Shown here: piece after piece, positions 1 through 16,213 of the stretch
Layout of the letters: every line of letters begins with the position of its first letter
How positions within the stretch are numbered: position 1 is the first letter of the stretch
Source of the DNA: Octopus vulgaris
Taxonomy: Eukaryota
Reading direction: 5' to 3'
Assembly (NCBI GenBank): GCA_951406725.2
Contig: OX597828.1
Span: 49,786,001-49,850,000, forward strand
Length of the DNA stretch: 64,000 nt
Notes under the pieces: generated by a model
Told to the model about the DNA's origin: nothing
The model's input: the letters and a program-made list of their open reading frames with translations, nothing else
Database searches by the model: none
Translations under genes and position numbers: made by a program

Positions 1-1269
1 TTTATAATTGTACTTATGTCTAATGAGTCCTCATTACCCCCAAGAATTTCATTTTTACTCCACTTGGGGTAATTTACCCCTGTTCACCAACCCCTGCTCT
101 ATGGATTCTCACAGAGATAGCTGTTAGTTCAGTGGTATCATGAGCAAGAGAACTATAACAACATGCCACATCACTTCCTGTAGGGATTCAAAATCAAAGC
201 CCCTACCTATATTGATGCACAACTGGGCATGGTAGTTAAGCCCTGGGTCATGTTCCAACAAGACTCTACTCCCCACATGGCCCCTGCAACCCAGGAATAA
301 ATTAGCTGAGAATTTTCACTTGTTTTACTCCCAACTCTTGTCTGGACCATTATATCTGGGGTACAATCGTTGAGAGGGAGACAAACCACAATATAAGGAC
401 TGCTGAAGGCTGCCATTGTAGACACAATGGGCAACAGGGATTAGAATCCCTATTCTGGCACAGAGCCACTTCCATGGTCACATCAAGATTGAGGATGGTT
501 TTACTGAATAACTTTTGTTTTTTAGATACCAAGGGGAATGTGTACTTTTCTTCAGTCTTTTTTTCCCTAATTACTTGTTGTACACACACACACACTCAAT
601 AGTGTGAAATGCAGTTAAACAAAAGAAACTATTAAATACTGATAGGTAGATTGATTATCATAGATATACACACATACACATACATCATGCCCTCTCATCT
701 CTCTGACACTCTCTCTCTCCTGTAGAACTCAATTACTTGTGCAATTAATCTCTTGGTTACACTGTCCTTAATGAGCTGAGATAACATAGTCAAGACTCTC
801 TAGATTTGTGGGACACAAAGCAACGACTTGTGTTGATGGCATGATAAAATGCATGTGGTAAACTCTAAGTGATTGGCAAATGGATTGAGGAAATACAGAG
901 TCAAGTGGACCCCTTTAGTTTGGCTAAGAACATAATATAAGTAATGTCTCTAGTGCTGGTGCCATACAAAAATAAGTATACTCTGTAAAGAGGCAGATAT
1001 TCAGAAAAGTATCCAGGTATATAGAAACCATGCTAAAAAGGGGATGCGTTGAGGTGTGCCACCTAAGAAAGTACTAACATGAAATAAGAACTGGCTTGGA
1101 TCAAGGACAACCAATCCAGCCCAAGGGGTCAGCAGGGGAAGTGGTTGTTGTATCACACATCCAGCAGATCTTAGCTTACTTTTCTTGAACCTCTCAGAGT
1201 TACCCACATGAGACTGATATATAATCTCATTATTCAGGCATTGTGAATAATGAGACCATAACCTGTGGC

Positions 1270-1845
1270 CTATGCCAGGAGCGTAACCAGCCCGCTTATG
1301 CGTACCTTTTCCTTCTTTGGTCACTAAACTCTGCTTGCAAAGACCTGTTGAGGCAAGTGAAATCAAAATCATTTCAATGACTGGCATTCGTGCTAGTGGG
1401 GTGCAAAGAGTACCATACAAATGTGATCGTTGACAGAGCGGCTATTCGAGTATGATCGTTACCAGCGTCGAATTACTGGCACTCATGCCTGTGCTAGTAG
1501 GGTACCAAGAGCACCATCCGAGTGTGATCGTTGCCAGAGCAGCCAACTGGCTTCCGTACCCATGGCACCATTCGAGTGTGATCGTTACCAACATCGCTCC
1601 ACTGGCACGTGTAAAAAGATTCAAGCGAGGTCATTGCCAGTACCACCTGACTGGCCCCTGTGCCAGCGGCACGTAAAATGCACCCACTATACTCTCGGAG
1701 TGGTTGGCGTTAGGAAGGGCATCCAGCTGTAGAAACTCTGCCAGATCAAGGTTGGAGTCTGGTGCAGCCATCTGGTTCGCCAGCCCACAGTCAAAAATCG
1801 TCCAACCCATGCTAGCATGGAAAGTGGACGTTAAACGATGATGAT
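1270..1845 (+). mobile_element. (ATG)n-tailed retroposon 3' end, family C, with internal tandem modules
   Basis: GTTGGCGTTAGGAAGGGCATCCAGCTGTAGAAAC core and CCATGCTAGCATGGAAA...GATGATGATG tail. Confidence 0.8.
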
Positions 1846-3835
1846 GTGATAGGAGAGAGGCACTAATAGCAACTATTTCTCATAGGTTATGAAATCATGT
1901 AGAAACCTCCCCGTTGGCTTGATGATAATTGGTAGTGAGACCCAAGTTGTTCAATGCTGACATTCAAAGACCTGTGCCTTAAGCATGAAACGAACATTAC
2001 ATATTCAGTAAATCACATCCATTTCTCTCTCATCTCAACAGATCTTCCACATCCAATACTCCATGTTCAAGCAAATCATACTCACCCCATTCACCCACAG
2101 ATCTTCCACATTGAATGACTCGTGTCTCACTACCATGTAGCATCAAGCTAACAAGGAAGTTTCTACATGATCTCTTAACCTACAGGAAATAGCAGCCATA
2201 TCTCCCTCAAATCACACCACATTTGGATAATGTAGTTGTACTTGCTCTCCCTCTCTCTTCTTCACCTGCAATTACTGCCTATCTCCCATCACAATGCCTG
2301 AATGATGAGGGATTACATCAGAACTCTTTATATCCAATGCATTTCACCGTTTACCCGACTCAGCTGCTTGCCACCACATCCTCTCTCACCCAAATTACTC
2401 TTTTACTGACATTCACCACTTTTACCATTGCCAATTCAACTTTCTATCACTTGCACACACACACACTCTCTCTCTCTCTCTCTCTCTTACTACTAATCAT
2501 GTAGTTGCCATTAGTGTGTCTCTTCCATAACCTTCTGCCATTACACACCTCATCATTCCTCTAGCACTATCTCTCCCATTTCTCCATTCCACCTTAAATC
2601 ATCTTTTGCAACTGCCCTATTTTTTCTATCCATTCTCTTGGTCATGTTGAAGACAACATTAAGCAGCAAAGATACTTTTGTCAGACAAAGCAACCTCATG
2701 TGCTGGTGCCACATTAATATGCACCCAGTAACTCTGTGCAGTGGTTGGTTACAACAGATACCAATGGACGATTGAGAAGCCTTTAGTCTTACAGAGGACA
2801 TGATATCCCTCTAATGCTGGTGCCACATAAAAATGCACTCGGTACACTCTGCAAAATGGTTGATGTTAGAAAGAGTATCATCCAGAAGCCATCATAATTT
2901 TAATGTCCACTTTTCCATGCTTGTTTGCGTTAAAATTTAAGACAGATTTTCTACAGTCAGATGCCCTTCTAGTCACGAACCTCAACCGGTTTCTAAGCAT
3001 TGGAAATGAATGACACTGCTTCTATGACAGACACATTTACAACCAACACACGATGTCATGACAAGGAGGCATACACATGGAAGCCTTTTTTCAGTTTCCA
3101 TCCACCAAATCTACTGCAAGGCTTTGATAGACCTCGGACTGTAGTAGAAGACACTTCCCCCAATGTGCCATGCAGTGGGATTGAACCCAAAACCATATGG
3201 TTGAGAAACAATCCTCTTAACCACACAGCCATGTCTGCACCTAAACTATCCCAAAATAAAATGTACAAAACAAGACGTCATCCCTCGACCACACCTAAAA
3301 GGAGAACAAGATTGAAAAAGAACTTTTAACAGATCACGATATCCAGCTGAATCAATGGAAAGCAGATGTAAGCTAACAATTATGATGATGGCCATGGGAG
3401 GAAGGTCTTTGATCCAAGTTAACCTAAGTTTACTTCATATGGTCAACCTCTTACAGAGAACACACTTTAAGGTCAAAACAAATAAGTCCTGAAACTTCAA
3501 TCCTTTCCTTACTCTCCCTACTATAGCATCATTACAATCACCCCCCAACATCAATAACAATGCCAGTGATTTATTCTCTAAAATACACTAATATTTCATA
3601 CCCACTCCTATACAATATTGCACTCCAGTCAATGATTTTTAATCACTACTTTAATAAGTAAAGTTAAGTGTATGCTTCACTGAAGAGATCTAACAAGACC
3701 AGAACATGTTCAGAGTGGTCTACTACACTTGTCAAAATTCAAATAGTGTTTATCATGGAATTAAAACTGTCATTTCCTTATGACTTTATCACAACATGAT
3801 TTATTTCTGATCACTTTTTTGAATAAGTTAACACA

Positions 3836-4220
3836 GGCGCAGGAGTGGCTGTGTGGTAAGTAGCTTGTTTACCAACCACATGGTTCTGGGTTCAGTCCCA
3901 CTGCGTGGCACCTTGGGCAAGTGTCTTCTACTAGGGCCTCAGGCCGACCAAAGCCTTGTGAGTGGATTTGGTAGATGGAAACTGAAACAAGCCTGTCATA
4001 TATATGTATGTATGTGTGTGTGTGTGTTTGTGTTTGTCCCCCTAGCATTGCTTGACAACTGATGGTGGTGTGTTTATGTCCCTGTCACTTAGCGGTTCGG
4101 CAAAAGAGACCGATAGAAAAAGTACTGGGCTTACAAAGAATAAGTCCCGGGGTCGAGTTGCTCGATTAAAGGCGCTGCTCCAGCATGGCTGCAGTCAAAT
4201 GACTGAAACAAGTAAAAAAA
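3836..4220 (+). mobile_element. tRNA-derived SINE, family A
   Basis: Head GGCGCAGGAGTGGCTGTGTGGTAAG (A box) and GGTTCAGTCCC (B box), internal (TA/TG)n, tail GACTGAAACAAGTAAAA; multiple copies in the window. Confidence 0.85.
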
Positions 4221-5409
4221 ATTTGGCAGAGTTGAGAAGGACATCCCATCCATAGAAACCATGCTAAAACAAAGAATGGACCCTGGTGCAGCTCTCCACC
4301 TTGGCCGCTCCAGTCAAACTGTCCAATCCATGCCAGCATAGAAAATGGACATTAAATGATGATGATGATGCTACAATGAGTTCAAATCAGATGAGAACAA
4401 CTTTGCCTTTCAGTACCAATCCAAGACAGGAGAATGAAGGAACTGTAAGGATGTCGGACCATATATCTTGTAGCATTTGTTTTGAGTTCAAATTTCACTT
4501 TGGCCTAGATCGGAACATATTAAACTCACCACCTGGTTTAACACCACCACGAGGAAATGTACAAGTTATAAGCACTATGTTGTTACTCATTGCAATGCTG
4601 CAGGTAAAAATAGTTGTTAATCATGAACATGCCTTCATAAATTGCTCAAAGTAAAAGTCTTTTTTCTTTATTAAAGTCTGTGTTGCTTGTCTATATGTTG
4701 AAAAACATACAGAAACATATATACACACAAACAATAAAAAAAATACTATATATATTTATATACTCATAATGTTGCATTGTGTTGACAGACTTGCACTTAC
4801 AATTCCTACATTTTTAATCAAAACCTGTTAGTTACTAAGGTGACAACACTACCTATTCATCTATCTCTCAACAATAACCTTTTCCCCTCTCTACATAGAT
4901 GTTGTTATGGAGAGGGAGAGTTCAGCTTGTCTTTTATAATACAAGATTTGGGGTCAGTCTTGCAGCCCCTATTAAAGAATCATGGGCACTATTTCCTCTC
5001 ACCCCAAAAGGAAAAAAAAAAACAGTGGTACCCAAAGTTTTATAACCCAGTTTCTCTGAAACTGAGAATGGTACGGTTCCTCATGAACCTTTGCAGGAAG
5101 AACATAGGCATTTAGGAAATTCCAAATATTCTTGGAAGAATTTGGTATAGTGGTTAGCATAGGGCTTTGGATGTGCACACACGTTAAGTGATAAGTAACT
5201 TCAGAACACCTGAATGGTCATGGCTGGAGAGCAGCCAGCTCTGAGTAAAAGGGCAGTGATGCTAGATGAAGACATAAGGGTTTCTACACATACTAAAACT
5301 TAGACACCATATGTAATTGGAAGGATTGCTGCCGTGTTTTTTTGATGCCATAAAAATTTCATGCCTTCCATTACTAAAACTCCAATGGAATGTAACTTGC
5401 TCAGACTGG

Positions 5410-5655
5410 ACTGCATAAACTTTTAAATAAGAACCTAAACTGCAGCAGGTTCATATTTAAACTGGCCAAAATATTCTACCTGTTTTGCGTTCAAATCAGC
5501 AAGACCTGGTCTCTCACGGCTACTCTATAATGTCATTCTAAAAATAAGCCATCTCATCACTGAGATCTCATAGCTACGAGATAATGCATGATTAATTCAA
5601 AACAATGTGAATAAATAAGCATTACATTTGACAGAATAATCTGAATTCTAAAAGG
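5410..5655. mobile_element. piggyBac-like MITE, inverted and degenerate
   Basis: Reverse-complement similarity to 38288-38508; ends ctaaaagg|ttaa. Confidence 0.6.
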
Positions 5656-6143
5656 TTAAAAGGTTTGGGTTGTACAACCCCCAAAATGATTACAAAACAT
5701 TCCCTGTAACTATCTACGTATAGGTCTCCCAAACATTCCAGATTTGTCATTTGCCAAGGGATACAAAAGCAAAACAACTTCCAACAGTTTGCTGGTTCCC
5801 AAACTACAAATGCCAATCATTGTCATTCAACATCCATTGTCCATGTTGGCAAGATGGAGAGCTGCACTGGACTCCAGACTGATTTGGCATGGTTTCTACA
5901 ACTGGATGCCCTTCCTAACACCAACCACTTTACAGAATGTACTGGGTGATTTGTTCAATGGACCCTAATCCCTGCATTGCAAATTTTAATTATGTACCAT
6001 AGATGCCCCTCCATTTACCAACCAACACTTTTTAGAAATAGCACAAATACCCCACACTATACTGTATTATATTGTATTTGTTTCATTAGTAAGACACTGA
6101 AGTCTCACTGACTCAGCCTACTTCCTTATAAATAGATATCATA

Positions 6144-6982
6144 TGAGATGATATCAAAAAGTTCCTGGACTAGTCATGTTTAATAAAAAAAATAACTTAT
6201 TTACCTCAGATTTAACACTATCTCCTTCAAAATAGTCACCTTGTGCAGTGATACATCGGTTCCAGCATTCCTGCCACTTTTGGAATCTGGTCTGGAAAGC
6301 ATTTTCCACAAGCAAATCAAAGACCTTCGGCAATTCGCTCTGGAACTTGACAACCATTGAGCTGCCTTTTCATTTTGGGAAAGAGGTGGAAGTCTGCAGG
6401 TGCTAAATCTGGCGAATGGGCTCGGTGCGGAAGTGATACCATGCTGGTTTTGGCGAGAAACCCATGAGTGAGGAGAGCTCAATGAAAGGGTCCATTGTCA
6501 TTGCAAAGAATACAACACTCAATTGGCGATCTGGCCGGGGTGGGTGTGGAAAATTCTCAATGGACTGTGGACGTCGAAAAAAAAAGACGAGCAGGCTCTT
6601 GATTGAGCTGCGGCCCTGTCATGCCTTCTTCGGTTGTGGAGATGAAGGCCTCTTACATTGCAATGACTGCTGCTTCATTTCATGGTCACACCCGTAGATC
6701 CAACTCTCATCACCGGTAATAATCCTTGGCATGAAGGACGGGTCATCAGCAGCACACCGACAAGAGATCTTGATAGACTTTAATGGGATGTCCATGACAA
6801 AATCTCAGACTACAGCATACACATGATTGCAAAGACACAAATTTCACAACTTGCAAAGAAAACACAGCGATGTCACTTGGCACACTTCCTCATGAACATC
6901 ACTGCTACTGTGCATGCAACCATGTGCTGTCACCTGTTGGTGTGCTACTGAATTAGTTCAGAAACTTTTCAATACCATCTCG
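6144..6982 (-). mobile_element. Degenerate, internally deleted mariner transposon
   Basis: About 29-bp imperfect TIRs (tgagatgatatcaaaaagttcctggacta / tagttcagaaacttttcaataccatctcg); transposase remnants SPDLAPADFHLFPKM and FQKWQECWNRCITAQGDYFEGD. Confidence 0.88.
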
Positions 6983-7029
6983 TTTATATAGCTTATTGTT
7001 GTGGCAGCAGAAAGGAGTGCTACCAGAAG

Positions 7030-8270
7030 GATGAAAGTCAGCAATGAATATAACATTGAAGGTAGGAGTTCACCAGGGCTTGGCTCTTAGTCCCCTTTTA
7101 TTTACCATAGTTCTCCAACCCATGACAGGGGAGTTTAAGAAGGGTTGCCTGTGGGAGCTCCTCTATACTGATGACCTTGTTCTTATAGATGAATCTATAG
7201 AACTAGAAAAGCACTTGGAGAGTGCAGACCTCCACAAAGCAGCTCATTTCCACCAGTTTACATGCATGCTGAGAATCGCCCAATTTCCCAAACCAAAGCC
7301 AGCAAAAACATAACCTCCTTGGCGGGGGGTAAAAAAAAAGCCCCTTTAAAAACAGGAATCATCTGAAGCAGTTCACAACCACCACCGTCATCAGCAACAT
7401 CGTCATTGCTTCCACTTCAACCACATACACCGCCATCAATGTTATCACAACGGTTACCTTGACAGTCACTTTTACCACCACAACCAGTATAACCACTGCA
7501 ATGCCATCATCACACAACTAACACTATCATCAACACCACAAGACCACCATCATACTGCTCCTGTCGCCATTATAACCACTGATGCTATTTTATCCTCCTC
7601 CCATACTTATCTCAACCATCATCATCATCAACACTGCCTCTAAACAGCAACGCCACCATAGGTTATGTGGAAACGATGAACATGTTTTCAAGGGAGATAA
7701 TCAAAGAATGTAACATAGTAAATACAGCAAGTGAAAAATCCTTCAAGAATCCATAAAAATTCCCAGATCACTACCAAATTTTCATCATCTGTTCCTTGTG
7801 TCACTACCAACTTTTCCTGCAAGTTTTATCAAATACCATTCACAAATTTTTGAGTTATTTTGTACAAAGATGGACAAACCAAGGCCAATGAAAATATAAC
7901 CGCCTTCCTTGGCGGAGGTAATTAGAGAAGAAATTCAAGGAGTGGAAGTAAAGCCTAGAATCAATGAGCTTTGTGAGCAACAAAAGGCTTCTTCTCACAG
8001 TGAAATACAGATTGTATGATGGCTATACACAGACAGCTACACTACAAGGCAGCGAAACAAGCTTCAAAGAAATGAAGCTAGCATGTTCCCCCTGGATGTA
8101 CAATGTCAGTGTGCACTTTTAACAACAAAGTGTGAGTTGAGAGAAAAACAGGGTATGAGAGGCATCAGATGTAGTGTGCAAGAAAGAAGACTGTGCTTGT
8201 ATGGTCATGTAAATAATGCATAACGATGACAACAGCTGCATAACAAAGCAATGATTGCAAGTGGTGAAAA
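7030..8270 (+). mobile_element. Degenerate RTE LINE fragment split by an insertion (about 7201-7923)
   Basis: VGVHQGLALSPLLF...LLYTDDLVL...ELEK, resuming at 7922 as LEKKFKEWK*SLES. Confidence 0.75.
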
Positions 8271-9194
8271 ATGACCCCTAAATTTTGAGCCTCACAGAGG
8301 AGATGACGAAGGACTGAGACACAATTGGGATTTGTGATGCTAGAGAAAACCCATCCAAGTAAAATCGAGGCCCTAAAGGTATGCCTGTGCACCTGTACAC
8401 AACCTATCCCCAACAAATCATCTTCCTAACACCCGCTTATTCCACCCATGTTCACCATTCACTGCATTCCCCTCTCCCTCCCCTTAACTTACCTGCACAT
8501 AATCCATCCCTGAAAAGTCTCTTCCACTCCCACAATGTATGTTCCTAACACCCCTTCCCACCACATGTGTTTACTCTCTGCATACCCCCCCCCCCCCACT
8601 TTCCTTTCTCTCGCTCACCTTATCCAATCGCTTAAACCACTTCACTTTTATACACCTCCCTGCAACTTGAGGGCAGACTCCTACAACAAGACACCTGCTT
8701 CTGTTCCTCTATCATACTCACCACTGCACAAAGTCACCTCCTCCAATACTAGAACCCTTACTTAGCTAAGGAGTCATGTCTTGCAAATTACTTGGCCTCA
8801 CTGGTGCTACATGAAAATGCACCCAGTACACTCTGTAGAATGGTTAGCATTAGGGAGCGCATCCAGCCACAGAAACCATGCCAAAACAGACAGTAGAGCA
8901 CTACACAGTCTACTGGCTTGCGAGCTCTCATCAAACTGTCCAATCCATGCCAGCATGGAAGGAGAACATTGAATGATTCAATTAGCATTCAATGCAGGGA
9001 TTTATTCAGTCAATAGGTCCCCTCTTTTGTTATATTACTGAGAAAGACCAAATCTTGGGTGGGACTTCAACAGATTCCTGGTACCCCCAATACATACTAC
9101 TGGCTCATTAAGAAAATTGATAATTATAAAAACAAACAAGATCACATTAAATAGAAACAAAATTTTCCCAGTGTTTTAAGAGAGAATTTGTCAT

Positions 9195-9200
9195 TTTATT
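9195..9200 (-). terminator. Candidate distal poly(A) signal of the U1A/SNF gene (a proximal AATAAA lies at 9465-9470)
   Basis: AATAAA on minus followed by U/GU-rich sequence at about 9165-9125. Confidence 0.5.
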
Positions 9201-9382
9201 GTCATTCTCTTATTTATATTTCAATATAAAAGAAAAATAAACAAATATCTCAGTTGGAAAAAAACGAACAAACAAAAACTATGAAACTGAAAGGAAGAAA
9301 TCTGTCAATGAGTTTTGGTAAGAATATTGTGAATTAGCTTCACCCCCACCACCCACCAAAATGAAGAATGTAAAATGAGAAT

Positions 9383-9410
9383 CCACCGTCGGATGGTGCA
9401 ATGACGATGG
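9383..9410 (-). promoter_or_regulatory. U1 snRNA stem-loop II-like hairpin (U1A/SNF binding site) in the U1A/SNF 3' UTR
   Basis: mRNA sense CCAUCGUC-AUUGCACCAUCC-GACGGUGG: 8-bp stem closed by C-G, loop begins with the U1A heptamer AUUGCAC. Confidence 0.75.
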
Positions 9411-9534
9411 CATTAATGCTGCTTACCATTCCATCTGGTAGCAAAGTTGTGCCGAATTTGATGGTTTATTTTGTAAGTTTTACCGAAATGCACCAAATCA
9501 CTTTCATCATATTTTTACTGTCTCCTTCCTTGTC

Positions 9535-9694
9535 TTACTTCTTAGCAAATGTGATTTTCATTGCATTGTTTGGTGTAATCTTGAAGCCTTGAAGTGCATC
9601 CTTTGCAGCACCAGCTTGCATTTCATTTTCAAATTCAACAAATGCAATATCATGTCGACCAGGCACCAAACGAACCTCTTTGAAACCAGGAAAT
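9535..9694 (-). CDS. SNRPA: U1A/SNF coding exon 6 (end of RRM2, stop)
   Basis: [55 protein letters not shown]. Confidence 0.96.
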
Positions 9695-12600
9695 CTAAAA
9701 GAAGAAAGGAAAAAAACCCATTAAAAAATCACTAGATAACATAGCTAGATAGCATAGCATATTTTGATAGATTACCCTCAGTAAAAAAAATAATTTTTTT
9801 TTAAAAGCATGGTTTTGTAAGCCACAAAACACTTGCTAATTTCACAATGATGCCACAGTGGTAGCTACTTACAGCAACATAGACTGAGCTGCCAACAGTT
9901 AAGTGTCTTGGTCATACATACAGTGCAGTGAGCTACACCACACTGTGGTAGCTATCGACAGCTAGGTGGACTCTGGACAGTGCACCTAGCTGTATCAATC
10001 TTGGTCATTGACACAGTATAGTAAAGTATACCATACTGTGGTACTTACTGTAAGGCTCATTGGGTTGACGACATTAGTCATAAACACAGTACAGAGTTAC
10101 ACTGCACTGGTACCCGCCTACAGCCAAGTGGACTGGACTGTTGACAGCTAAATGCCATTTCCACAGAAATAACAGAACCTGAGCAACTAATCTAGTCATC
10201 CATCTATTATCCAATCCAATGACCTTCACCTACCTCTTGTCATAAACATAGTACACAGAGCTACAACTAAGTGGACTGGATTGTTGACAGTTAAGTGCCA
10301 TTTCCACAGCAATAACAGGACACGAACAACCAATTAACTGCCTGTCCCATTATCCAATCTGGTGACCTCTTGTCATAAGTGCACAAGTCAAATGCTTCCA
10401 ATGTGAAACTAAGACTTACTGATTGAACAACATTGACAACATCATTTCTGTGGTTTCCTCAGGAAGGTTGGTTAAGAACAGAATTTGGTTAGGAGGCTGT
10501 TCTGGAATGGTATTTGGTGCTGCCAGATTTGTAGAATCTGCAATAGAAAACGGGGTGAATTAGTTACTAAACACAGCTACATGGAAATTTTTAGGCAGCG
10601 AGCTGGCAGAAATGCTTAGCGGTATTTCGTCTACCGCTATGTTCTGAGTTCAAATTCTGTCAAGGTCGACTTTGCCTTTCATCCTTTCGAGGTCGATAAA
10701 TTAAGTACCAGTTACGCACTGGGGTCGATGTAATTAACTTAATCCATTTGCCTGTCCTTGTTTGTCCCCTCTGCGTTTAGCCCTTTGTAGGTAGTAAAGA
10801 AATAGGTATTTCGTTTACTGCTACGTTCTGAGTTCAAATTCTGCCAAGGTCGACTTTGCCTTTCATCCTTTCAGGGTCGATTAAATAAGTACCAGTTACG
10901 CACTGGGGCCGATATAATCGACTTAATCCGTTTGTCCCCTCTGTGTGTAGCCCCTTGTAGGCAGTAAAGAAATACATTGGAATTTTTAAGAGATAAAGAT
11001 AAATACAGTGACAATGCCCAGCAAACAATAACGGGGTGGGGGGTGTTCCTTGTAGAAACTACTGAAATATTCTATTTACTTCCATCAGACATGATCAAAG
11101 ATGCTCTAGCCATGACCATTTACCAGATTTCTGCTGAAATATATTGGGTAGTCCACACTACTCTCTAAGGAGCATAGGGACAATTCCCTGGATTTTCTGG
11201 CGTCTACATTCCTCTCTGGACAGGATGCCGGTCTATCACAGGACTACTTGATTTTACCAGCTGCGTGGAATGGAGCAACAAAGAATGAAGTGTTTTGCCC
11301 CTAAACACAACACAATGCCCAGTCCAGGAACTGAAACCACAATCTTACAATCAGGAGTCCAACACCCTAATCACTAAGCCATTGCCTTCACATTGTTTAA
11401 ATCAATTTTTCTATTTGCTTAAGTCACAAATAAATAATGGATCAACCGATTAGGAACTGTCTTACTGATTCATGATCTCCTTTTTTTTTTTTAAACTACT
11501 TTTGAGACACTTCCAATGGTGATGGGCCTCCTGTATCAGACTGGAGTAATATCTTAAGTCATACCAATGTAAAAAAAACAAGTGGAGCCTGTACTGAAGC
11601 TCAATAAACTGTTGAGATCAATCAGTGCAGGGGGAACCCCATCCTATCTTAGATGTTAGAAGCAAAATCTCATTGGAAATATTATGTAACCCTTCCATCT
11701 ACTTTGTCATGTTTGCATGGGTTAGGGTGAATTCATTGAGGCAGTTTTTTAATGGCCAGGTGCTCTTCTTGTTACCAACACTCACTGGTTTTCATGCAAG
11801 GTAATATTTCCCCATGACCAGACATGCTTTACATGGAAGACTGGAAGCAAACGACATCACTTGTATGATGGTGATACGCATTTACAACCATCACAGGGTG
11901 TTGAGACATGAATACAAACACACACAACAGGCTTCTTTCAGTTTCTACCTACCAATCCACAAAGCTCCTCGGGTCTAGTTGAAGACATTTGCCTAAGGTG
12001 TTACGAAATGAGACTGAGTCCAAAACCAAATGGTTAGGAAGCAAGCTTCTTAACCACAAAGTGATGTCTACTCCTGCCAGTATTGGTTAACAGCCATTAC
12101 TCGGCCGATGGTACATTTATTGTGTTTTAATTGAAAGTTCCAAACAAGGCAAGGAGCCACTCAGAGTAAGGGAATATGAAGGAGAAATTAAGACGAAAGG
12201 AATGAATTTACTTTAGACTTGAAAGAGTTTAGGTCATAAAAATGGGGGAAAATAACGAAATGGAAGTTTGAGAAAAAAATAAAAGCTATGACCACAGGAA
12301 CACTTCCTTATTCAAGGAAAAACAACAACATTTGGATGAAGAAACTGAGTTTCAAGTATTGATAATGATGATGATGATGATTATACAGCATGAATGACAA
12401 ACAATCACTTACTTTGAACAACTGGCTGCTGTAATTGTTGTAGTACAGGTTGTTGAGGAACCGGTTGACCAGCCATTGCTGAAATAGGTTGGATGGGAGG
12501 TGGTACAACACCAGCTGCCTGGGCCCTGGAACAGAAACATAATTTACAATATCAGATCAATTAAAAAATAAAAAGGACATAAAAAGCTGTTTTTATCAAA

Positions 12601-15600
12601 ACATTTTTGTCAATTTTACTTCAATTTTTGTTCAGCCCCAAGTCAATCTTAACTCAGCAGGCGCTTTTAATCAAAGGCGTTCCACCCATGACCTTTTTCT
12701 TTAAAACTGCAAGGTGTGATTAGAAGCAGAATTGATTGCTACTTTTAGTAGATCAAGGAACTATTAAGAGGTTCCTTTGTTGTGTTATTACTTGGTCTAT
12801 ACTGTGAGCTATAACAGCAGTAAAAACAACAAACTGCACAATGGAATTGTACGAGGAACCATGTGGTTGTAGAGCAAAATTCTTAACCACACAACTATTG
12901 CTTAGAGCTGAAGTATTTGTTATCCCTGGAGAGAGAGGGGCGAGCCATCTTTGACGCTGTAAGATAAGATATAATATGAAGTGTAACAGGAGTGGCTACG
13001 TGGTTGTAGCTTGCTTACCAACCACATGGTCCTGAGTTCAGTCCCATTGCGTGGCACCTTGGGCAAGTGTCTTCTACTATAGCCTCAGGCCGACCAAAGC
13101 CTTGTGAGTGGATTTGGTAGACAGAAACTGGAAGAAGCCCGTCATATATAAACATATATATATATGAATATGTGTGCATATGTTTGTCTCCCCAATATCG
13201 CTTGACAACTGATGCTGGTGTGTTTACGCCCTCGTTACTTAGCGGTTCGGCAAAAGAGACCGATAGAATAAGTACTAGGCTTACAAAGAATAAGTCCTAG
13301 GGTTGATTTGTTCAACTAAAAGCGGTGCTCCAGCATGGCCACAGTGAAATGACTGAAACAAGTAAAAGAGCATATATAAACCCTGACTCACTTAGCAGCA
13401 GCGGCAACAGCCTGTTGGGAAGCTCCCTTCTTGCGTTTCTTATTTTCTGGCTCATCATCCTTTTTCTTTTTTGGTCTTTCCATATAGGTACCTTTCATCT
13501 TAGCAATGATATCAGAATCTTTCTTGGAATATTGTATTCTCTGGAAAAACAAATGTAAAAAAAAAAAAACATTAGCCATTTATTATTATTTTTCAAATCA
13601 TCATCACTTAACATCCGCTTTCCTTGCTAGCATGGGTTGGATGATTTGACTGAGGTTTGGTGAACCAGATGGTTGCACCAGACTCCAATCTAATCTGGCA
13701 GAGTTTCTACAGCTGGATGCCCTTCCTAACACCAACCAGTGTGTAGTAAAAATACAAAATCAAGGATACATTCCACTTTGAAAGGACAAGACTAAAGCTA
13801 CATAATAGGATCCTTAGCCTCTTTATTTCAATTAATTTAGAAAAGAGAATTTAGTGAAATGACTTTATCATTCTTAAGTTGGTAGTTGGAAAATAAATGA
13901 TCATAGAATTTTGATGGAATGGTTTTAATTCAGATCCTTTTAAATAGGAAGATTTTTTTTTTATCTCAGAAGTCGGGGTATCATCAGGTTCTTTTGGTAT
14001 CAAAAGAGGACAAATCCTGTATATCAATGATTTCATAAAGAAGGGCAAAACAAAAATTTTGACCAGAGTGTAATTCTATATGTGTATATTGATTTCAAAA
14101 TTTGGCACAGGGCCAGAAATTTCAGGGGAGGGGCATAAGCTGATTATATCAGCCTCTAAAGGGCAAAAGGCAAAGTTGACATTGGTGGAAATTGAACTCA
14201 GAACATAGAGATGAATGAAATGCTGCTGAGTATTTCGTCTGACAGGTTAACAATTCTGCTAGCTCACTGCCTTGTTTATATGTATATGGTGAAGGTACAG
14301 ACATGGCTGTGTGGTTGAAAAGATTGTTTCCCAAACATAGGTGGTCATGGGTTTAGTCCTATTGCATGGTACCTTAGATGTCTTCCAAAGAGTCCCAGGC
14401 TGACCAAAGCCTTGTTGTATAGATTTGGCAGATAGTAACTGAAAGAAGCTGTCGTGTGTGTGTGTACCCCTTGGGTTGACATCCTATGATGATTGCAAAT
14501 GAGTATCACTGTCATATGAGCCATGTCGTTCATATACTGTCCTCCATGGTGATATATTACTTTGCTTAGAAACAGGTGAGGATTGGTACAGGAAGGGCAT
14601 CTGGCTGCATAAAATTTACCTCAGCAAATTCTGCCTGACCCATGCAAGCTTAAAGAACCAGGCACTAATGACGATTAAGAATTGATAAAATCTAGCCACA
14701 TGTAGGAAATACACAAACACACATTAAGGAAACATGAAATGTTGATCTTACCATTGGTTTGTCATAGAACGGGAAACCTTGCATTGACCGGAGAGCATTT
14801 GTGGCACTGTTGATGTCTTTAAAAATTACAAAAGCTTGCCCTCGACATTTCAAAGTTTTTAAGGCAACAATGTCAAGAATTTGGCCGAATTGTGAGAAAA
14901 TTGCATATAAAGATTTCTTTAGTTCTAGAAAAAAAGAAACAGAGTATAATCACAGAGAATTATAGAAATATACATCATCATCATCATCATCGTCGTTTAG
15001 CGTCCGTTTTCCATGCTAGCATGGGAGGATTAAAATATATTGGAGAATAGAAAAGATTGGATGTAGGTCAAAAGCTGACCAGAAGAGAATTAATGCATTC
15101 GAGCTTTGGTGTTGGAGAAGACTTTTACGGATTCCATGGACAGGAGGCTCACCAATGGAGAAGTTCTTAACCAGATCAAGCAGAAATTGTTGCTAGAAGC
15201 TAGGATCACCAAGCACAGATTGACATATTTTGGTCATATTGTGCGGAGAAAAATCCCTGGAGAAGGACATCATGCACGGAATGGTCAGTGGTAAGAGAGG
15301 AAGAGACCAACCAAGAACCCGTTGGCTTGACACCATCAAGAGTGACACGGGAATGGCCATAGCCAATCTGAGAGAAGCGACCCGGGATAGAACTGGCTGG
15401 AGAACACTGATCCACCGAGTAACCGAGAGTCAACTTCGACTGAATGGATAGATAGATAGGTCAAGAGTTAGCAGAAGTAAATTAAGGTTAACAAACATGA
15501 CCAATGCTTAGCACGACAATAAAAGAAATGTTAAAGCAACACAATGTAGAATCATTATTATCCAATGTCTCCCCTTCCATGCTGGCATGGGTTGGGCAGT

Positions 15601-16213
15601 GAGACAGGAGTAGACAAGTGAGAAAACTTGCACCAATCTCTACTGCCTGTTTTAGCATACTTTCTACAGTTGGACGTTCTTAATAATGCCAACCACTTTA
15701 CAGTGTATTGAATGCATTTTGCATGGCACCAGTAGCAGTGACATCACCAAGTAACTTGCAAAACTCCTTGATTATGGGGTAGCAGTATTGAAGGAGATGG
15801 CTTTGTGCCAGGCGATGAGGTTAATAGTATGAAGATGGCCAGAAATAAAAGTCTTGCAGTAGAGGAGATATGTGGCTACTCAGTTGGAGTGAATAAAAGA
15901 GAGAAAGTGAAGATGTGATGGGGCTCCAAATGAATTTATGAAACCAAAAATTCCAGGTTATTACATTAAATACACTTCAAGAGTTGTAGCAATCCATATT
16001 CTGGAATGTTATTACATAATGGGAACTTCTAATCACCAGCCAAATTATTGGACCTGTAAAAGAAATCTAGTTTGTCTTTAGGTCCTTGTTAATCTGTTAC
16101 CATCTGAATGATACTTCACTAAATTCCAAAGCACAGCTAGTCAACTTACCATCTTTCTTAATGCTTTCATTCAAATTGTTAATATAAATTGTGTGGTTTG
16201 GTCTGATGTCCAT
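9535..16213 (-). CDS. SNRPA: U1 snRNP A / U2B'' / SNF family protein, two RRMs, 258 aa; join of 16150-16213, 14752-14924, 13392-13540, 12413-12525, 10420-10537, 9535-9694
   Basis: Spliced translation [56 protein letters not shown]...[47 protein letters not shown]...MKITFAKK*. All introns are GT-AG, phases are consistent, total 777 nt. [10 protein letters not shown] matches the single-copy SNF-type protein. Confidence 0.96.
10420..10537 (-). CDS. SNRPA: U1A/SNF coding exon 5 (start of RRM2)
   Basis: [28 protein letters not shown]; tgcag acceptor, gtaagt donor. Confidence 0.95.
10593..10973 (+). mobile_element. SINE family B (GGTCGACTTTGCCTTTCATCCTTTCGGGGTCGATAAA core, Meta-domain-like) with internal tandem duplication
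   Basis: Core repeated twice; flanks acatggaaattttta and acattggaattttta are TSD-like. Confidence 0.82.
12413..12525 (-). CDS. SNRPA: U1A/SNF coding exon 4 (P/Q-rich linker)
   Basis: [37 protein letters not shown]; phase-2 in, phase-1 out, matching its neighbours. Confidence 0.88.
12985..13370 (+). mobile_element. tRNA-derived SINE, family A
   Basis: High similarity to 3836-4220; ends about 20 nt from the U1A exon 3 donor. Confidence 0.85.
13392..13540 (-). CDS. SNRPA: U1A/SNF coding exon 3 (helix C and basic linker)
   Basis: [29 protein letters not shown]...; ttccag acceptor, gtgagt donor. Confidence 0.95.
14752..14924 (-). CDS. SNRPA: U1A/SNF coding exon 2 (RRM1 core)
   Basis: [57 protein letters not shown]; ttctag acceptor, gtaag donor. 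Confidence 0.96.
15070..15458 (+). mobile_element. RTE (BovB-like) LINE 3' end
   Basis: [19 protein letters not shown]...LTYFGHIVR...[26 protein letters not shown]; short GATA tail. Confidence 0.88.
16150..16213 (-). CDS. SNRPA: U1A/SNF coding exon 1 (exon starts at 16228 with 15 nt of 5' UTR)
   Basis: ATG at 16213; [21 protein letters not shown]; donor G|GTAAG; acceptor ttttccag upstream. Confidence 0.95.

Follow-up and report, generated by a model that had tools for sequence, protein, structure and literature searches.

A used 5' splice site beside a U1 stem-loop-II-like hairpin in the 3' UTR of the Octopus vulgaris SNF gene

What does a 5' splice-site-like sequence do behind the stop codon of a U1A/U2B''/SNF gene, next to a hairpin that mimics stem-loop II (SLII) of U1 snRNA? 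The autoregulation of U1A is a textbook case in vertebrates, where it works via poly(A) polymerase, and the vertebrate PIE (Rfam RF00460) lies about 20 nt from the poly(A) signal. In mammals, repression of the poly(A) signal is aided by U1 snRNP, which binds a 5' splice-site-like sequence located upstream of the PIE (excerpt of PMC3157836). In the 64,000 nucleotides of Octopus vulgaris DNA analysed here (hereafter, the window), the original prediction placed the sequence AUG|GUAAGC 108 nt past the stop and 10 nt upstream of an SLII mimic, and these coordinates were confirmed on the minus strand.

The U1A/U2B''/SNF gene lies on the minus strand, and its six exons together encode 258 amino acids (Table 1), identical in 258 of 258 residues to an Octopus sinensis protein named U1A. 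The last five exons, from 14924-14752 to 9694 onward, are linked by contigs of public runs. RRM1 of the octopus protein matches fly SNF, human U1A and human U2B''. Behind RRM1, where the PAP-inhibiting motif of human U1A is located, the octopus stretch is basic, with a linker that resembles the one of fly SNF and is unlike the ERDRKREKRK of human U1A. Searching the octopus genome with the last exon retrieved two matches (a lower bound), namely the gene itself and, on contig C1, a copy that is no longer intact, which suggests that a single SNF probably serves both the U1 and the U2 snRNPs. In the literature searched, no description was found of how the balance of one SNF shared by U1 and U2 snRNPs is kept in animals.

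Table 1. Features of the SNF gene and its 3' UTR, in window positions.
Feature	Position	Strand	Details
U1A/U2B''/SNF coding region	9535..16213	-	exons 16213-16150, 14924-14752, 13540-13392, 12525-12413, 10537-10420, 9694-9535
Exon 6, main unspliced terminal form	9167..9694	-	ends of run contigs
Exon 6, spliced internal form	9427..9694	-	end of RRM2, stop 9537-9535, 108 nt of UTR; X14 record (depth 160.7) ends at 9427
3' UTR 5' splice site ATG|GTAAGC	9421..9429	-	exon ends at 9427, intron starts at 9426; U1 pairing, X14 contig, retrocopy break
Proximal AATAAA	9465..9470	-	39 nt upstream of the donor; intact in the retrocopy
Weak predicted stem partly pairing the donor	9419..9444	-	folding
U1 stem-loop-II-like hairpin	9383..9410	-	8-bp stem, C-G closing pair, intron +17 to +44; predicted SNF site
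Main AATAAA	9195..9200	-	182 nt past the hairpin; most contigs end behind it (contigs cannot prove an end)
Alternative 3' UTR intron, window part	1..9426	-	total 11,566 nt; ends outside the window at G000:C15:49783861

Position +1 of the donor is the 109th base past the TAA, and the hairpin follows +6 after a spacer of 10 bases (9420-9411). The U1 snRNA of this genome has the usual 5' end, with which the site pairs at -1 to +5 and at +7 (six contiguous pairs plus +7), giving a duplex of -8.0 kcal/mol. For the coding donors of the gene the corresponding values are -8.0, -5.7, -6.4 and -5.6 kcal/mol (four of five, the exon 1 donor being unscored), and the 3' UTR donor is as strong as these four constitutive ones. 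The U1 snRNA genes include a tandem cluster at G000:C18:48.97-49.21 Mb, with 42 matches scored genome-wide. With an approximate scoring matrix, the donor scores 4.84 and is the top-scoring GT of the 368-nt UTR. An equal donor appeared anywhere in the UTR in 8.55% of 2000 dinucleotide shuffles and at 12-40 nt from the loop, a distance window picked post hoc, in 0.55%, while equal-scoring sites occur at 0.42 per kb on the minus strand of the window. The bare motif is only modestly above chance; the donor is raised above it because a spliced contig and a retrocopy both break at 9427|9426.

The junction that was to be sought at 9427/9426 according to the original prediction is present, at the exact base named, in a contig of run X14. 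The X14 record that ends at 9427 has two continuations, one unspliced (depth 66.9) and one spliced (161 nt; depth 10.9). The spliced contig consists of 30 nt corresponding to 9456-9427 followed by 131 letters, and 29 of the 30 letters compared match a noncoding exon that starts at G000:C15:49783860, on the same strand and 2.1 kb beyond the start of the window. The acceptor in front of it displays a long polypyrimidine tract and CAG. ATG|GTAAGC works as a U2-type 5' splice site whose partner is an acceptor ending in AG, and the spliced share in X14 is about 14% by contig depth, which is a rough measure of isoform share. In X5, the contig of one allele stops at 9427 and the depth declines from 26.8 to 16.9, which is an indirect hint of a branch. 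The contigs of X1, X6, X13 and X15 pass 9427 without a branch. Six of the 24 listed runs were therefore covered, with the junction in one, a hint in one and no branch in four, from contigs that drop rare forms. The runs are unlabelled and none of those listed is recorded as RNA; the contigs of the six covered are spliced. The unspliced contigs reach 9174 (X13, X14, X15), 9181 (X5), 9249 (X6) and 9147 (X1).

No downstream exon was found inside the window. A 140-nt mini-intron ending at an acceptor-like TTTCAG (~9287) was also considered and gave no joint in four of four runs, contigs being unable to exclude it. An assignment of the downstream exon to a neighbouring coding gene was set aside, as no evident frame was seen by eye among 27 ORFs of at least 70 amino acids in the region (L087). 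The first AATAAA of the downstream exon lies 1,530 nt in, and one nearby ATTGCAC is found at offset 973. A repeat is inserted about 95 nt into this exon (G000:C15:49783765-49783528, L004), and the X14 junction contig ends within it. Separately, an X15 contig continues past 9174 with 192 letters that depart from the window sequence close to the main 3' end, with no GT at that point, perhaps owing to a chimera or a difference between organisms.

A second record of the same splice is preserved in genomic DNA. The broken copy is a 5'-truncated processed pseudogene at G000:C1:175143545-175144087 (L002, L089), which contains in-frame stops and in which exons 5 and 6 are directly joined, their intron missing, at 78-81% identity to the gene. 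When the genome was searched with the UTR, the match in this copy stopped exactly at 9427, and the copy continues in the downstream exon: the letters past this point match G000:C15:49783851-49783765 with a score of 101 in 29,426 nt, where 40 shuffles reached no more than 35. The retrocopy aligns to the parent on either side of the repeat in the downstream exon, and the repeat itself is absent from it. At about 80% identity and lacking this repeat, the retrocopy indicates that the splice is old and predates the repeat insertion. Use of the donor is therefore supported by two independent kinds of record, the X14 contig and the retrocopy DNA. An origin of the X14 junction contig from the retrocopy was ruled out, because 29 of 30 letters equal the parent exon and the retrocopy has substitutions and a gap. 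The retrocopy lies antisense, adjoining an exon-like stretch of another gene, and no poly(A) tail was seen; its 3' end carries a repeat that shows a 17-bp duplication resembling a target site.

Splicing at this donor keeps the reading frame and the protein, and it removes the main AATAAA together with the hairpin, the only one of the UTR with AUUGCAC. NMD can be elicited when a junction follows the stop by 50 nt or more, and a role of the EJC in fly NMD was first denied and later shown (excerpts of PMC6173133); for molluscs, no literature on EJC-dependent NMD was found. With an exon junction 108 nt behind the stop, above the 50-nt threshold, the spliced RNA is predicted to be a target of NMD or of nuclear retention. 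Nevertheless, the sole retrocopy found stems from the spliced form, which was therefore present in the germ line and open to reverse transcription, contrary to what one would expect of efficient decay. This speaks mildly for a different function, in which SNF would block the donor and, at low SNF or in the germ line, splicing would shed the only AUUGCAC hairpin while keeping the full reading frame, so that the message becomes immune to repression. We consider such an escape very unlikely, given the junction beyond the 50-nt threshold (excerpts of PMC6173133), the 1,530 nt to the first AATAAA of the new exon, and a donor that lies 8 nt clear of the stem, counted from +8, and is not buried.

The stem of the hairpin (9410-9403/9390-9383) carries a 12-nt loop, AUUGCACCAUCC (9402-9391). 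The hairpin is of the SLII type, with AUUGCAC at the 5' side of the loop and C-G closure; the loop of the genome's own U1 SLII is AUUGCACUCC in three of the four loci printed and has 10 nt, versus 12 nt in the UTR. SNF prefers SLII-type loops with a C-G closing pair (excerpt of PMC5992148), and on this preference free SNF probably binds the UTR hairpin. The probability of the hairpin was 0.85, 0.10 and 0.52 across three folding windows, and the 81-nt region has a folding z-score of -1.75. Since U1 snRNP covers the donor to +8 and the stem starts at +17, both could bind side by side. Folding gave no strong switch by which the hairpin would control access to the donor, and this idea was rejected: opening the donor from -1 to +6 costs 2.3-5.1 kcal/mol, forcing the SLII hairpin lowers this cost by just 0.15-1.1 kcal/mol, and the effect is small and depends on the folding window.

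Ten AATAAA lie on the way to the acceptor, the main one first. Because the acceptor is reached only past an uncleaved main poly(A) site, use of the donor competes with 3' end formation. Cleavage at the proximal AATAAA would lose both donor and hairpin. The need for read-through also means that blocking of polyadenylation and use of the donor are compatible, and the former may contribute alongside splicing. That the U1 site and hairpin chiefly block 3' end formation, as in human U1A, with the far splicing being a leak of stalled RNA, is suggested by the order of the parts, a 5' splice-site-like sequence upstream of a U1A-binding element as in mammals (excerpt of PMC3157836), by the unspliced state of most contigs and by an acceptor 11.6 kb away, which can be used only if the poly(A) site is bypassed. 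It would also resemble U11/U12-65K, where cleavage is suppressed through a U1 site in the 3' UTR and some 9% of the long transcripts are joined to an intergenic exon (excerpt of PMC5473595). However, the PIE is bipartite and stands at a conserved distance from the poly(A) site, and PAP is inhibited when two U1A molecules occupy it together (excerpts of PMC6884704), whereas the octopus UTR has a single site at 182 nt from the AATAAA, and the protein has the fly-like linker. The octopus UTR contains one ATTGCAC and no ATTGTAC, it has no match to U1A_PIE at E up to 10, and the short PIE-like distance to the poly(A) signal is absent from it. The octopus element falls outside the PIE class, although part of its action may resemble that of a PIE, and we regard blocking as the chief function as rather unlikely. 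Of the two possibilities raised in the original prediction, the real 3' UTR donor with a junction more than 50 nt past the stop is borne out, its control by SNF and the decay of its product being putative, and the block by a U1 site plus PIE-like hairpin founders on PIE geometry (one site, 182 nt, no Rfam match).

We tentatively favour, at close to but below an even chance, a negative feedback in which splicing competes with polyadenylation, similar to TDP-43 or 65K, and surplus SNF diverts its own message. Free SNF would bind the AUUGCAC loop with its C-G closure, as expected from the specificity of SNF; bound SNF would then stabilize U1 snRNP on the adjoining donor or slow cleavage, giving more read-through and splicing; and the spliced RNA would be lost by NMD, through the junction rule or a 3' UTR of more than 1.5 kb, or kept in the nucleus. 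The narrower form of this feedback, in which SNF on the snRNA-mimic hairpin recruits U1 snRNP to the donor and so produces a decay isoform, would represent a splicing-based autoregulation of U1A/SNF in an animal, and appears possible, if on the unlikely side.

Several known systems resemble parts of this feedback. One is human U1A (SNRPA), a gene of the same protein family with a 5' splice-site-like sequence upstream of the element bound by its own product in the 3' UTR. The octopus gene differs from it in that a single hairpin of the SLII type takes the place of the two-site PIE, and in that its site is a used donor with a mapped acceptor, while the human site is described, in the excerpts of the papers cited above, as a U1-binding repressor only. 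In TDP-43, the normally silent 3' UTR intron 7 competes with the choice of poly(A) site, and the spliced form gives less protein (excerpt of PMC3950720); its trigger is demonstrated and its outcome is nuclear retention, whereas in octopus the corresponding trigger, a snRNA-mimic hairpin beside an 11.6-kb intron, and the outcome are both putative. 65K is also a gene for a snRNP protein with a 3' UTR donor before the poly(A) signal, from which a minority of transcripts splice to a noncoding exon. Its sensor, however, is the U11 snRNP on the USSE, and its donor is suboptimal and conserved across tetrapods, according to the same excerpt, while the candidate sensor in octopus is a protein on a hairpin. 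Finally, the splicing-factor genes SRSF1 and SRSF2 have an intron behind the normal stop that makes an NMD target (excerpt of PMC6884704), but SR proteins act through short enhancers, whereas the octopus gene encodes a core protein of the snRNP and has a structured element that mimics the snRNA site of that protein.

When metagenome contigs were scanned with the last exon, 303 relatives were obtained; the best 80 of them (L005-L084) were considered and fall into 61 clusters besides the window. SLII-like hairpins are present in the 3' UTRs of 20 of these 61 SNF loci of other animals, against 0.57 in shuffles (maximum 3; n=200) and 1 on the opposite strand. Among the 20 hairpin loci, nine have 2-5 copies, 29 of the 37 loops are of 10 nt, and the start of the loop is fixed while the stems are lineage-specific. 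Numbers so far above the shuffles, together with stems that vary around a fixed loop, argue that the hairpin is selected. The joint conservation of donor and spacing that the original prediction envisaged was not found in any of these 20 distant loci: donors scoring at least 3 at 10-100 nt upstream of the first hairpin were absent from all 20 (null 1.61), and thresholds of 3, 4 and 4.8 each gave 0 of 20 in every upstream window tried. Pairing of donor and hairpin is thus not general, and, in the loci sampled, the hairpin appears widespread and the adjoining donor so far seen in octopus alone. Donors at least 50 nt past the stop, at any place, occur in 7 of 20 hairpin loci versus 3.26 expected at a threshold of 4.8 (P 0.04), a count that is not significant at thresholds of 3 and 4 (P 0.21 and 0.13), is one of several tests and is given no weight here. 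In a tree built from 11 named proteins and the 26 loci whose proteins are long, no locus groups with Octopus and Argonauta; the other 35 loci were too short to be placed. By the record of the retrocopy, the putatively regulated splice site is old within the octopus lineage.

That all 20 of the other hairpin loci lack a donor ahead of the hairpin also speaks for an incidental cryptic donor in octopus, a chance GT used by a far acceptor in read-through RNA independently of SNF, with the hairpin acting alone. The chance frequencies of the motif in the UTR and on the strand, the junction in just one of six runs and the repeat taken up by the downstream exon all fit such an accident, although an exon that triggers decay needs no sequence constraint. 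Nevertheless, the same donor and acceptor were used about 20% divergence ago, as recorded in the retrocopy, and are used today; a share of 14%, imprecise as a figure from depth must be, is more than noise would be expected to give; and the proximity to the loop would be rare by chance, post hoc as this window is. We therefore rate an accident as rather unlikely.

In the literature searched, which takes in few subscription journals, no report was found of self-binding hairpins in invertebrate SNF genes or of a regulated 3' UTR intron in them, and the terms autoregulation, UTR and PIE do not occur in a paper on the evolution of the family (PMC4114683). The octopus locus offers a mapped acceptor as well as a mapped donor and a candidate sensor that lie no more than 45 nt apart, and it bears on whether the mammalian U1 site ahead of the PIE originated as a used donor. 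If SNF indeed recruits U1 to the donor, self-binding would be ancestral, with hairpins in one third of the sampled invertebrate SNF 3' UTRs, and the vertebrate PIE and its U1 site would be one of several outputs wired to self-binding.

The other loci present further differences from octopus and likenesses to it. Splicing of the 3' UTR in other species was sought in 35 near-identical locus pairs, which displayed no divergence at any donor, and a 99-nt gap between L005 and L006 proved to be an indel without GT-AG. L005, L006 and L010, from two sister lineages, have a weak GTRAG about 24 nt past the stop (UTR nt 24-25), upstream of the hairpin; in L010 it stands 25 nt before the loop, versus 24 in octopus, and is too near the stop for the junction rule. 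In RRM1 (exons 16213-16150 and 14924-14752), octopus has NLNESIKK where most other loci have NLNEK(I/V)KK, and a second segment departs from the KMRGQAF found at most other loci. Both changes are close to RNA-binding loops, and they might fit the 12-nt loop of the hairpin.
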